A DNA stretch of 64,000 nt from a phage. The translations under genes were made by a program, and so were the position numbers. Shown piece by piece: positions 36,223 to 53,332 of the stretch (position 1 is the first letter of the stretch; each line of letters begins with the position of its first letter). A model generated the notes under the pieces. That model ran no database searches, was not told the DNA's origin, and was given only the letters and a program-made list of their open reading frames with translations. Where the stretch lies: the sequence record PZ402305.1. One strand, written 5' to 3'.

Positions 36223-36483
36223 TTACTCCGCAATTTGAGCCATGAGATCACGCAGTTCGGTAAAACCGCCTACGTATGTTACCTCCCCGTTCACTTCGGA
36301 CAGAATTTGTGGAAATGTGCGTGGAGGAACTCCGGTAAGATCAACAACTGTTTTAGTCATTGATTCTAAATCATAGTCTTGATCAAGACTTAAATATTCA
36401 AACTGTTTATTGCGCATGGTTAATAGTTGTTTTGACATTTCACAAAATTGACAGTTAGGTTTACCAAAAATTACAAATTCCAT
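36223..36483 (-). CDS. glutaredoxin/thioredoxin-like protein
   Basis: 86 aa with CQFC redox motif; directly precedes rml and nrd genes. Confidence 0.6.
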   Translation of the reverse strand: MEFVIFGKPNCQFCEMSKQLLTMRNKQFEYLSLDQDYDLESMTKTVVDLTGVPPRTFPQILSEVNGEVTYVGGFTELRDLMAQIAE

Positions 36484-37325
36484 TACCTCTCCTTATTAAG
36501 TAATACTGCTAAAGACTGTTCAATACCTTTATTTAAATCTGATTTTGTAAGATAGTGACTGGTTACTAGTTGTGACTTCACCGGACGTGCTGCTGGAGCA
36601 TTATAGGTTGAAGCTGATACCGCCGATATCTTAACAGGTTCTGGCATCTGTGTCAAGATCTTTTCCGCAAACTCCGCCCAAGAAATAAGATGGCTTCCTG
36701 CAAAATGGTAAGTCTTAACAGACCTTGACCAACCTGTTTTTAATACTTCAAAAATAGCTTCTGCTAAATCTGGAGCATATGTTGGACAAGAGAACTGATC
36801 AGCAACAATAATAAAATCACGTTGTCCATCATTATAGCGAGACAACATGGTTTTTAGAAAGTTATTTCCAAATTCGCTATATACCGAGGCTGTTCGAATA
36901 ATATATGCATTTGGGTTAACTCCTCGCACCATTTTTTCACCAAGTTCTTTCGTATACCCATAATTGTTTATTGGGTTAGGTGTAGTATCTTCAAAAATAG
37001 GATGAGAATAATTAAAAATATAGTCTGTAGAAATATGCACAAAATCAATTTTAAGTTTGCTGCACACTGCCGCAATATTTGCAGGTCCATACGCATTAAC
37101 AGCCAAAGCAGTAGCAAAATCATGTTCTGCTTTATCTACAGCCGTATAAGCGGCGCAATTAATAACACCATCTACATAATCTTCAATAATAGCGTTTCGC
37201 ACAGCTTCAAAATTTGTAATATCTACACGTTCTTTAGGATAAATTAAAGATACATTTGAAGGAGCCACTTTACGTAAAGCTTGTCCCAGTTGTCCATTAC
37301 CGCCCAATACCAGATATGTTAGCAT
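36483..37325 (-). CDS. rmlD: dTDP-4-dehydrorhamnose reductase
   Basis: N-terminal VLGGNGQLG Rossmann motif; last gene of the rml set. Confidence 0.75.
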   Translation of the reverse strand: MLTYLVLGGNGQLGQALRKVAPSNVSLIYPKERVDITNFEAVRNAIIEDYVDGVINCAAYTAVDKAEHDFATALAVNAYGPANIAAVCSKLKIDFVHISTDYIFNYSHPIFEDTTPNPINNYGYTKELGEKMVRGVNPNAYIIRTASVYSEFGNNFLKTMLSRYNDGQRDFIIVADQFSCPTYAPDLAEAIFEVLKTGWSRSVKTYHFAGSHLISWAEFAEKILTQMPEPVKISAVSASTYNAPAARPVKSQLVTSHYLTKSDLNKGIEQSLAVLLNKER

Positions 37326-37885
37326 ACACCCTCGCTACGTAACTGTTGAAAAGATTTAGCCATTGCATCTTTTGTTGATAGAATAGGTTTAAAACCTTCG
37401 TCAAAAATCATATCGAAGCCCCAATCGATCCCTATATCAGGATCATCCCAACGTAAACTTTGTTCACTAGAAGGGTCGTATGGAGTTGTGCATTTGTATT
37501 CAAAGATAGCATCCATACTCAAAACTATAAAACCATGAGCCAAACCAGGCGGAAGCCAAAACTGCGTATGGTGTCGTGCACGAAGAACAACACCGTCCCA
37601 AGCACCGTAAGTTGGACTATCTTTACGTAAATCTACAGCGAAATCCAATACTTCCCCACTTACACAACGAACTAGCTTACCTTGCGGGTTATTTGTTTGA
37701 AAGTGCATTCCTCGCAAAACACCGAAGTTTGATTTAGACATGTTATCTTGAACGAAAGTTTGTCTACCAATAATATCTTCGTATTTTTGTTCATTATATG
37801 TTTCTAGAAAGAAACCACGATCATCTTTATAAACGTCTGGTTTGATAATTACCGCACCTTCAATTTTTGTTTTTTCTACTTTCAT
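37319..37885 (-). CDS. rmlC: dTDP-4-dehydrorhamnose 3,5-epimerase
   Basis: [14 protein letters not shown], cupin-like; ATGA overlap with rmlA stop. Confidence 0.8.
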
Positions 37886-38760
37886 TTTCTCTCCGCTAAT
37901 TTGAGTAGGTATTGCCCGTACTCTGTTTTCTTCAGTGAGTTTCCATGATACACCAAAGTCTCTAAAGAAATCCACCCTTTTTTGAAAGCAATTTCTTCCA
38001 GGCACGCAATCTTCAATCCTTGACAGTTCTCAATAGTCTGCACGAATTGACCAGCTTCCATCAGACTGGCGTGTGTTCCTGTGTCAAGCCAAGTAAATCC
38101 TCGTCCGAGAACTTCCACTTGTAACTTCCTGTCTTCTAGGTAGCTGCGATTGATATCAGTGATCTCCAGTTCTCCACGCGCGGAAGGGGTTACTTCTAAT
38201 GCACGTTGAATAACAGAGTTATCATAGAAATACAAACCTGTGACAGCATAATCTGATTTAGGATTTTCAGGTTTCTCTTCAATAGAAATAGCTTGACGAT
38301 TACTCCCAAATTCAACCACACCGAATCGTTCAGGATCTTTCACCAAATACCCGAAAATACAAGCTCCGCCCCAAACATCTACCATCTCACTGGCGTTAAT
38401 CAGTAGTTTACCAAAGCTTTGTCCGAAGAATAGGTTGTCACCTAAAATAAGAGCAACAGAGTCTTCTCCGATAAAATCTTTACCTATGATGAAAGCTTCC
38501 GCAAGACCTCGTGGCTCGGATTGGATTGCGTAAGTGAGTTTTATCCCAAACATAGATCCATCTCCGAGAAGATACTCAAAGTCTTCCTGATCGCCTGGTG
38601 TGGTGATTATTAAAATATCCTTAATGTCAGCCAACATCAATACCGATAAAGGGTAGTAGATCATGGGTTTGTCATACACAGGGAGTAATTGCTTGCTCAC
38701 ACTGCGTGTTACTGGATGAAGGCGGGTTCCACTTCCTCCCGCCAAAATAATACCTTTCAT
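37882..38760 (-). CDS. rmlA: glucose-1-phosphate thymidylyltransferase
   Basis: [18 protein letters not shown]...[16 protein letters not shown]. Confidence 0.9.
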
Positions 38761-38768
38761 AACCCTCC

Positions 38769-39761
38769 TTAAATTTTCTCACTCCACCATTGAGGGTTGT
38801 TTAAGTACCATTCAATCGTTGAGTAGAGATCTTGTTCAAATGTAGAGTTTGCACTCCAACCCAGTTCAGACTCTATTTTAGAAGGATTGATTTCATAACG
38901 CAAGTCATGTCCTTTACGATCTTCAACAAAAGTTATCAAGTTGGAAGAAGGGTAGGTTCCTGCCTCTGGATGTACAGCATCCATGTAGTCACAAACCATA
39001 TAGATGATCTCCATATTGGTTTTGGGATTACGTGTTCCAACATTATACGTTTGACCTGGTTCTCCACCTGTTGCCACTTGAAGAATAGCTCGCGCATGAT
39101 CCTCAACAAAAAGCCAGTCTCGCACCTGATCGCCTTTACCATACACCGGAATCTCTTTATTCGTCAAGATACTTGTGATGATTTTTGGGATCAGCTTTTC
39201 TGGATGTTGATAAGGCCCAAAGTTATTGGAGCAGTTGGTTATCACAACAGGCAAATCGTAGGTACGGTGCCAAGCTTTCACAAGATGGTCAGATGCTGCC
39301 TTAGACGCGCTGTACGGGCTTGAAGGGGCATAAGCTGTCTCTTCAGTAAAGGGAACGCCAGAGTCTGCCATATCGCCGTACACTTCGTCTGTGGAGACGT
39401 GTACGAACATCTTCAGTTTATTTTTTGGGAGGAGCCTTGCAGCTTCCAATAAATTGTATGTACCAATAATATTGGAGTCGATGAAAACTCGTGGATTCTT
39501 GATAGAATTATCCACATGACTTTCTGCCGCTAAGTGAATGATGAAGTCAGGATTGCACTCTACTACTAAACTTTTGACCTGGGTTTCGTTTGCCAAATCT
39601 GTTATGCTTAGTTTAACGTGAGTGATATCGCCTACATTCTCAATGTCTGCTGCATAGCCCATCTTATCAACGACAAAAACTTCGTTATTGGGATCTTGAC
39701 AAAGAGAGCGCACCACGGCACTCCCAATAAAACCAAGACCACCTGTTACCAGATAGCGCAT
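38769..39761 (-). CDS. rmlB: dTDP-glucose 4,6-dehydratase
   Basis: [15 protein letters not shown] and SDR YxxxK-type core; 330 aa. Confidence 0.9.
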
Positions 39762-50149: not shown

Positions 50150-50221
50150 AACGCCTCCTAAAAAGCCTACCTCATTAAGTAGGTAGGCATAATATCATAA
50201 CTAATCCCGCAAGTCAAGAAC

Positions 50222-51177
50222 TTATTTAAGGATTGTTGCTTTGGTTAAATCTTCCATCAGACCTCGAATCTCATTGAAGCACAGAAGGACTGAAGCTTCA
50301 ATACTGCCTTCTTCGTCTGCAAAATATTTCGGAAAACGTAGTTTAGAAAGTTTAAACTCTTTATCCACTACGAAATCTACAACACCGTCATATTCAAGAC
50401 CGATTGCAACAACATCTTTACCATCTTCTTTTAGTTCGACAGCTTTAGACTCGTATAGGGATTCTTTACTCCAAACAACAACGCCCTCGCTATCCTCCAT
50501 TTTGATATAATTTCCGAGAGTAATACGATCTGCTTCGTGATTCTCCAGCAATTCACCAAAACCTTTCACAATAGCTTCTTCATGCACACTAAAACCTACC
50601 GAAGGGAAAGTCCCCAGAACGGAACGGAGGAAAGAAGTAATCTCTTCTGCAACCTTTTTACTTCCATTAAGAACATAAAGAAGATTCGTAGTTTTATCCA
50701 AGACAACATAGTTAAAGAAATCTTCAGGTTCTGTTTCAGGCAATAGTGCAAATTCAATATCTTCCTTCATTGCTTTGACTACTTCTTTATCGACATAAAA
50801 CTCTTTACCTTCGCTCTCCATGTCCTGACGCATTTCTTTTCCTTCATTGCTTTGACTACTTCTTTATCGACATAAAACTCTTTACCTTCGCTCTCCATGT
50901 CCTGACGCATTTCTTCTAGCCGTTCATTCAGAATACGTTTAACTTTCTTTTTATCTACCTTCTTCACAGATTGACCTACATTAAGCAGTTCAAGATCTGA
51001 AAACTCTTTTACAAATTTAGAGTCATCTTCGAAACGAACAAGACCGATAGTGTGTGACTGGGAGCCTTCTGCTGTTACAAATTCCAGAGGAATATCTGTA
51101 ATGCTGTTAAGGGATGCTACAGAAGCATTGTCGCCAACAACCATAGGCAGAGCGGATTTAAAAGATTTTACAAACAT
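50222..51177 (-). pseudogene. gene split by a perfect 77-bp tandem duplication (track ORFs 50222..50833 and 50779..51177)
   Basis: Both ORFs encode MRQDMESEGKEFYVDKEVVKAMKE from copies 77 bp apart; removing one copy restores one frame of about 292 aa. Confidence 0.55.
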
Positions 51178-51233
51178 GTTTCCTCCTATTTAATACATCT
51201 CACATTACCGCCCATAAAGGGCGGCTTACAACA

Positions 51234-52204: not shown

Positions 52205-53332
52205 TTATTCTGCTGGTTCCCAAGTGCCTGGGATCATTTCTCGAATACGAACACCAACAGGTTTTGTTGGAATACCTTCATCTGAAAATTCTTCATACTC
52301 TATTTCAACGAACTGATTAATCAAGGTAGAAGCATTCTCTGCTTTACGATAATTGATAGTCTCATGAGCATCTTTACGCATTAAGAATTCGACTACTTTA
52401 CCATTTTCCATCTCACCTGTCAACACTCCATCGCCATTTTTATCACTTTTTGAATTTATTACTTTAACTTCAAGCGTATGACGAGGCTTACGTTTAATAA
52501 CATCATAAGAACGTTTATCAAATTCGTAAACTCCGTGAGCATTACGATATACTACACCTTCAGCTTTCTCAAGTAAAGCTTTTTCATAGAAAGCATCAAA
52601 CTGTTCTTGGTTTTGAATATACTCTGTATGAACTACACAAATAAGCTCATCAAGACCATAATCCTCCACTACTGCCTTAAGAGCAGTAAGAACATCAACA
52701 CGTTTTTCAAACGGTAGGTCTGGAACTGGAATATCGTATACGTAATAGTTCAGCAAAGGTGTATTTGCATTATGCTTCTTCCAGGCACTGTTAATTTGTT
52801 GTAGACTAAGGACACCTAACCCAGCAAACACTTCACCATCAAGAGGATGACCAACAACTTCACTAATAAAGTTTGGAATACCTTTCCAATGAGGTGGCAG
52901 GTTATACACTTCCCCAGCTTTTGATAAACACTCCCCTTTCATGTTAATCATAGAACGTAACCCGTTCAGTTTGTATTGTGCATAGCCAGGGAACACAACC
53001 CTTTCAGGATAATCTTTATAATCCTGGCATTTCATTGGTGTAGAAGGAACATGGTTTTCAGCTTCTTCTTTTGTTTTATAATAGCCATTCTTTAACTGTT
53101 TTGTCCATTTGGCAAAAGCTTCAAGTTCAGCTTGTTCTTCTGGTGTTGTTTCATTGGAACGACCGATGTTTTTTGCTTCTGCTGTATAAGATTTTTCTGT
53201 GATTTTTCCACCTACCCTTCCATGAGCTACAGTAACAACTGCACCATCTGTATACACTGTCCACTGTTTAAGTTTTCCTTTTGAATCTTTACCATACAGC
53301 GTTTGATTTGTTTGTTGCATTAGTCCTCCCAT
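52205..53332 (-). CDS. ATP-dependent DNA ligase
   Basis: FPGYAQYKLNGLRS (motif I, compare T4 gp30 FPAFAQLKADGAR), LDGEVF, EGVVYRN, VIKRK. Confidence 0.7.
   Translation of the reverse strand: MGGLMQQTNQTLYGKDSKGKLKQWTVYTDGAVVTVAHGRVGGKITEKSYTAEAKNIGRSNETTPEEQAELEAFAKWTKQLKNGYYKTKEEAENHVPSTPMKCQDYKDYPERVVFPGYAQYKLNGLRSMINMKGECLSKAGEVYNLPPHWKGIPNFISEVVGHPLDGEVFAGLGVLSLQQINSAWKKHNANTPLLNYYVYDIPVPDLPFEKRVDVLTALKAVVEDYGLDELICVVHTEYIQNQEQFDAFYEKALLEKAEGVVYRNAHGVYEFDKRSYDVIKRKPRHTLEVKVINSKSDKNGDGVLTGEMENGKVVEFLMRKDAHETINYRKAENASTLINQFVEIEYEEFSDEGIPTKPVGVRIREMIPGTWEPAE

Follow-up and report, generated by a model that had tools for sequence, protein, structure and literature searches.

An untrimmed assembly overlap as the most likely origin of a perfect 77-bp tandem duplication that splits an rdgC-like gene in a Phapecoctavirus sequence

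The k values in common use with the assembler SPAdes are 55, 77, 99 and 127. Identical 77-bp contig ends are described in a study in which phage genomes were assembled by SPAdes 3.14.1 with default parameters (PMC9409062). Another paper gives the same SPAdes overlap as 127 bp at a larger k, and mentions that contigs are rearranged automatically by PhageTerm (PMC5923482). In the Phage Annotation Guide, circularisation is treated as an assembly artefact, genomes are to be made co-linear with their relatives, and terminal redundancies are said to land in some cases inside a contig (PMC8785237).

Phages of the genus Phapecoctavirus are commonly assembled with SPAdes according to their published descriptions, one of which names 150-nt reads. 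In Escherichia phage iGC_PHA_EC001 (OR437326.1), a member of this genus, the prefix of the record equals its suffix over exactly 127 bp (positions 1-127 and 148319-148445), and its genome announcement gives SPAdes with k up to 127. Since the end identity has the length of the largest SPAdes k, it is read as an untrimmed overlap; the true length of this genome is probably 148,318 bp, and if the record were rotated, an internal duplication like the one described below would arise. When record ends were checked in eight relatives as a positive control, seven of the eight sampled had no untrimmed overlap there, and a 77-bp overlap was found in none of the eight. Untrimmed overlaps reach deposited Phapecoctavirus genomes, but only occasionally. 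The 40 listed relatives start at scattered positions and on both strands, as is expected for circular assemblies. In another record, OL739525.1 (phage dw-ec), positions 297-400 are the same as 151426-151529 and positions 1-38 the same as 151669-151706; its ends are redundant or repetitive with inconsistent offsets, and either an end overlap with imperfections or a repeat about 540 bp long could account for this.

The sequence analysed here, hereafter the window, is a stretch of 64,000 nt from phage record PZ402305.1. It is Phapecoctavirus DNA and comes from an E. coli myovirus similar to phAPEC8, with a genome of about 150 kb. At the rdgC locus, its identity to the best GenBank records is 99-99.8%, and the top GenBank relative is 99.3% identical across the 24-kb neighbourhood, so that the source genome itself is missing from the phage collection. 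Position 1 of the window aligns to position 364 of phAPEC8, in the middle of a gene, and such an arbitrary cut says nothing about the orientation of the record. Two GenBank records, MG065650.1 ('Campylobacter phage B15') and OP562383.1 ('Acinetobacter phage vB_AbaM_ABPW7'), reach 99.0-99.4% identity with E. coli Phapecoctavirus genomes at the locus, and by this similarity their host labels look doubtful. Elsewhere in the genome, two co-linear Logan/ENA relatives have four adjacent genes that match a dTDP-sugar pathway, namely an epimerase/dehydratase (PF01370), NTP_transferase (PF00483), dTDP_sugar_isom (PF00908) and RmlD_sub_bind (PF04321). The matching ORFs of the window lie on the minus strand at 38769-39761, 37882-38760, 37319-38005 and 36483-37325, and the minus-strand region at about 36480-39760 is predicted to form, in this lytic phage, a module for sugar nucleotides of the rhamnose type.

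A tandem repeat of a 77-bp unit is found in the window at 50762..50915, for which Tandem Repeats Finder returned a period of 77, 2.0 copies, 100% matches, 0 indels and a score of 308. By direct comparison, the period-77 identity is confined exactly to 50762-50915 and makes two full copies. The first-pass annotation, made from the letters of the sequence, had already described two adjacent identical copies, which both methods confirm; it had placed them at 50764-50917, which is 2 nt too far to the right. The copies and their junction are features without an assigned strand. Copy 1 (50762..50838), which is promoter-distal in the orientation of the gene and exactly identical to copy 2, contains the stop codon of the upstream ORF (ORF1, below) and the start codon of the downstream one (ORF2), and copy 2 (50839..50915) is promoter-proximal and carries codons 88-113 in the native rdgC frame. 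In a 40-mer scan, this pair was the sole perfect direct repeat of at least 40 bp within the 64-kb window, so that a chance origin of the pair is unrealistic.

The only new sequence arising from the duplication is at the boundary of the copies (50838/50839; short form CGCATTTCTTTTCCTTCATTG), where the junction 35-mer (50822..50856) reads GTCCTGACGCATTTCTT/TTCCTTCATTGCTTTGAC and the coding strand reads ...AATGAAGGAA/AAGAAATG. Through the junction, an AAGGA motif comes to stand 6 nt before the start codon (ATG) of ORF2. At the outer edges of the unit, the flank comparison found 0 bp of microhomology: the identity ends at the unit boundaries, and the 12-nt flanks match at 3/12 and 2/12 positions, which is the chance level.

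The repeat lies within an rdgC-like gene on the minus strand (50222..51177), in which the unit corresponds to CDS nt 263-339, that is, codons 88-113. As 77 mod 3 is 2, reading from one copy into the next shifts the frame, and two ORFs on the minus strand now occupy the gene. ORF1 (50779..51177; 132 aa) encodes RdgC residues 1-113 and, after these, a tail of 19 aa that is out of frame (KKCVRTWRAKVKSFMSIKK), and ORF2 (50222..50833; 203 aa) encodes residues 90-292 in the native frame. The overlap of the two ORFs is 55 nt long, and the peptide MRQDMESEGKEFYVDKEVVKAMKE occurs in both. When one of the copies is deleted, a single ORF of 879 nt and 292 aa is obtained. The overlap, the shared peptide and the restoration of a gene of about 292 aa on removal of one copy had all been claimed in the first-pass annotation, and all are reproduced here. 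Upstream, an AGGAGG Shine-Dalgarno sequence (51182..51187, minus strand; TAAATAGGAGGAAACATG) stands 4 nt before the rdgC ATG and is predicted to be a strong ribosome-binding site. Downstream, an intrinsic-terminator-like hairpin with a T-run (50165..50188, minus strand) follows the rdgC stop codon at 34 nt, with an 8-bp stem, 5 GC pairs and the tail TTTTT.

RdgC binds dsDNA as a ring-shaped dimer and modulates recombination of the RecA type. Over nearly its whole length (model positions 31-294 of 298), the Pfam RdgC model PF04381 is matched by the repaired 292-aa protein, with 78.4 bits and thus well above the curated cut-off of 25. It also matches phrog_724, 'exonuclease recombination-associated', at 1e-60, and by sequence the PDB structures of RdgC 2OWY (E 7e-6) and 2OWL (E 6e-5). 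ORF2 by itself retains a Pfam RdgC match (6e-19, model positions 93-294), and ORF1 by itself has no RdgC Pfam match. The cut-offs of the six NCBIfam RdgC models, equivalog and subfamily, were not reached, the best score being 74.4 bits versus 227. Scores so far under all six cut-offs point to a distant phage homologue and not an equivalog, and the repaired protein is accordingly classed, clearly by its Pfam, PHROG and PDB matches, as a distant phage member of the RdgC family. Compared with the bacterial proteins of E. coli (2OWL) and P. aeruginosa (2OWY), the phage protein is alike by the Pfam model and the PDB matches; it is distant, however, and DNA binding or modulation of RecA is putative for it. 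The word 'exonuclease' in phage annotations is a historical name, and the activity is putative.

The comparison with related phage genomes, which had been proposed in the first-pass annotation, gave a single copy throughout. In all of the best 40 GenBank records listed, the locus spans 2012-2026 bp (2024 bp in 36 of the 40) against 2101 bp in the window. When 101 bp spanning the junction were used as the query, the match fell into two pieces over the same 77-bp stretch in 59 of the 60 listed records, which means that these 59 hold one copy; the remaining record matches the right half of the query only, and all 60 are counted here as single-copy. The closest independent assemblies were fetched by means of the rare ThyX allele of the window, and five of the Logan/ENA contigs obtained cover rdgC. 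All five encode an intact 292-aa RdgC, and each aligns to the window in two parts that separate exactly at 50838/50839 and overlap by 77 nt on the contig. Over the aligned flanks they are 98.6-99.5% identical to the window and are not the same strain. One of them, from SRR9943764, has an extra 212-aa ORF at contig positions 3997-4635, between a pyrophosphohydrolase gene and rdgC; this ORF has a weak AP2-domain match, is present neither in the window nor in the other relatives, and is probably a mobile insertion of the homing-endonuclease type.

An exact search for the junction 35-mer in IMG/VR, JGI metagenome contigs and GTDB genomes found nothing, no counterpart of the rdgC locus was present among E. 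coli complete genomes and plasmids, and the exact proteins of ORF1 and ORF2 are absent from a collection of 15 billion proteins. In that collection, the repaired 292-aa protein is the exact allele (100%) on 288 public contigs, beside which no frameshifted rdgC variant is on record. The exact allele of the ATP-dependent DNA ligase of the window (52205-53332, minus strand; 371 aa, starting MQQTN) is absent from the same collection, in which the exact alleles of nine neighbouring proteins are present; the source strain therefore seems to be missing from public protein sets.

These results bear directly on the idea of a slippage-prone site, raised in the first-pass annotation, or of a phase-variable one, at which the 77-bp unit would expand and contract and thereby switch rdgC on and off. 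The one point in its favour is the presence, within a gene, of a tandem repeat with a unit length not divisible by three. Each of the 60 listed GenBank relatives and the five metagenome/SRA assemblies has exactly one copy and none has two or three, the intact allele stands on 288 contigs with no frameshifted variant on record, and in the single-copy version of the stretch there is neither a repeat within it nor microhomology beside it to favour slippage. We consider this reading to have next to no probability. Programmed frameshifting or phase variation was likewise rejected, as the copy number is invariant in all genomes compared.

With one copy removed, the resulting 1324-bp locus aligns without gaps to six relatives, from which the window differs in rdgC by 7-11 nt and by 0-1 amino acids. 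Four substitutions are private to the window with respect to these six (CDS nt 45, 258, 729 and 795), and all four are synonymous. The synonymous private changes and the few amino-acid differences indicate purifying selection on rdgC in the lineage of the window, and apart from the duplication the gene is free of decay in these comparisons.

Such conservation weighs against a tandem duplication of 77 bp that is genuine and very recent, in which rdgC would have been inactivated by the frameshift or left as two fragments, the loss being tolerated on the premise that RdgC is dispensable in the laboratory host. This explanation takes the sequence as given, and the duplication is indeed present in it. 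Furthermore, that the gene has not decayed further and that no other genome has the repeat fits a very recent real duplication and an artefact equally well. Slipped-strand and illegitimate-recombination duplications usually arise between short direct repeats, which is typical and not obligatory; here, however, the boundaries have 0 bp of microhomology. In addition, the length coincides exactly with the default SPAdes overlap, rdgC is intact in every other genome examined, and the 4/4 synonymous private changes suggest that the gene was under selection. A real duplication of 77 bp is physically possible but is held to be unlikely, although it keeps more weight than any other alternative to an artefact. 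The AAGGA created by the junction could allow translation of the 203-aa fragment, which contains most of the RdgC domain, and a real split of the gene, with an N-terminal product of 132 aa and a C-terminal one of 203 aa that is translated from this motif, is given the same small chance. If true, it would be a natural rdgC knock-out or a two-piece variant in an E. coli myovirus of the therapeutic type; a real duplication would otherwise be an ordinary and very young loss-of-function mutation.

The explanation that we prefer, with a probability of about 85%, is that the 77-bp duplication is a k-mer overlap that was retained when the ends of a contig, or two contigs, were joined. The unit length of 77 bp is the reported default SPAdes overlap length, and this match to an assembler k, which the first-pass annotation had missed, is the decisive clue. 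The artefact is favoured by this length together with the perfect identity of the copies, the 0 bp of microhomology, the single copy in relatives and the overlap found in the same genus. The duplication is thus most likely a flaw of data quality and not biology. Of the three causes that had been offered unranked in the first-pass annotation, the assembly artefact is upheld, a pseudogenising duplication is less likely but possible, and the slippage-prone site finds no support.

From phage genomes that are circularly permuted or terminally redundant, SPAdes produces 'circular' contigs whose last k bases repeat the first k, and contigs adjacent in the assembly graph likewise have k bases in common. 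If the ends of one contig, or two contigs, were joined head to tail and neither copy was trimmed, two adjoining identical copies of length k would result. Such an untrimmed join might occur on rotation to a chosen start or on reordering by a termini tool; its position would be arbitrary and without microhomology, and in the present case would fall inside rdgC. The true genome would then have one copy and an intact 292-aa gene of the RdgC family. We infer for the source genome a SPAdes assembly at k=77, followed by joining or rotation in which the overlap was not trimmed; the common use of SPAdes in the genus and the 127-bp overlap kept by one member give this indirect support. The internal position of the overlap requires an additional step, rotation or concatenation, which must be assumed.

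An internal position would also be expected if the two copies were the physical terminal repeat of the phage, set internally by the assembler, and the Phage Annotation Guide notes that terminal redundancies can end up inside contigs (PMC8785237). The unit, however, occupies codons 88-113, well within a conserved coding sequence, none of the 40 listed related records starts or ends in rdgC, and 77 bp is the reported SPAdes overlap length. Even then, the internal tandem layout would be an artefact of representation. The physical terminal repeat is regarded as very improbable, slightly less so than the slippage-prone site.

If the overlap was indeed left untrimmed, any deposit or reference use of this sequence carries 77 bp too many, and a conserved recombination gene would be annotated as two hypothetical fragments or as a pseudogene. 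The false split of rdgC would be carried into pangenome, gene-presence and pseudogene statistics. A screen is suggested in which perfect tandem duplications of assembler-k length without microhomology are regarded as untrimmed overlaps until reads show otherwise.

Compared with genuine frameshifting duplications in phage genes, the rdgC repeat is alike in its head-to-tail copies, in a length that is not a multiple of three, in the truncated overlapping ORFs and in the restoration of the gene by deletion. Genuine duplications, in contrast, usually have short homology at the junction and have no reason to match an assembler k, whereas the present repeat has 0 bp of homology and a unit of exactly 77 bp. 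The terminal k-mer overlaps of SPAdes (77 bp, PMC9409062; 127 bp, PMC5923482) resemble the rdgC repeat in identity, in the length of 77 and in arbitrary position. Neither needs microhomology, and the rdgC repeat is absent from the other near-identical assemblies. The rdgC repeat is internal and tandem, whereas the SPAdes overlap stands at the two ends of a record, and an untrimmed join would connect the two situations. In OR437326.1, the overlap is at the termini of the record, breaks no gene and corresponds to a k of 127 and not 77; like the window, this phage belongs to Phapecoctavirus, and its overlap, equal in length to the largest k, reached a deposited 'complete genome'.
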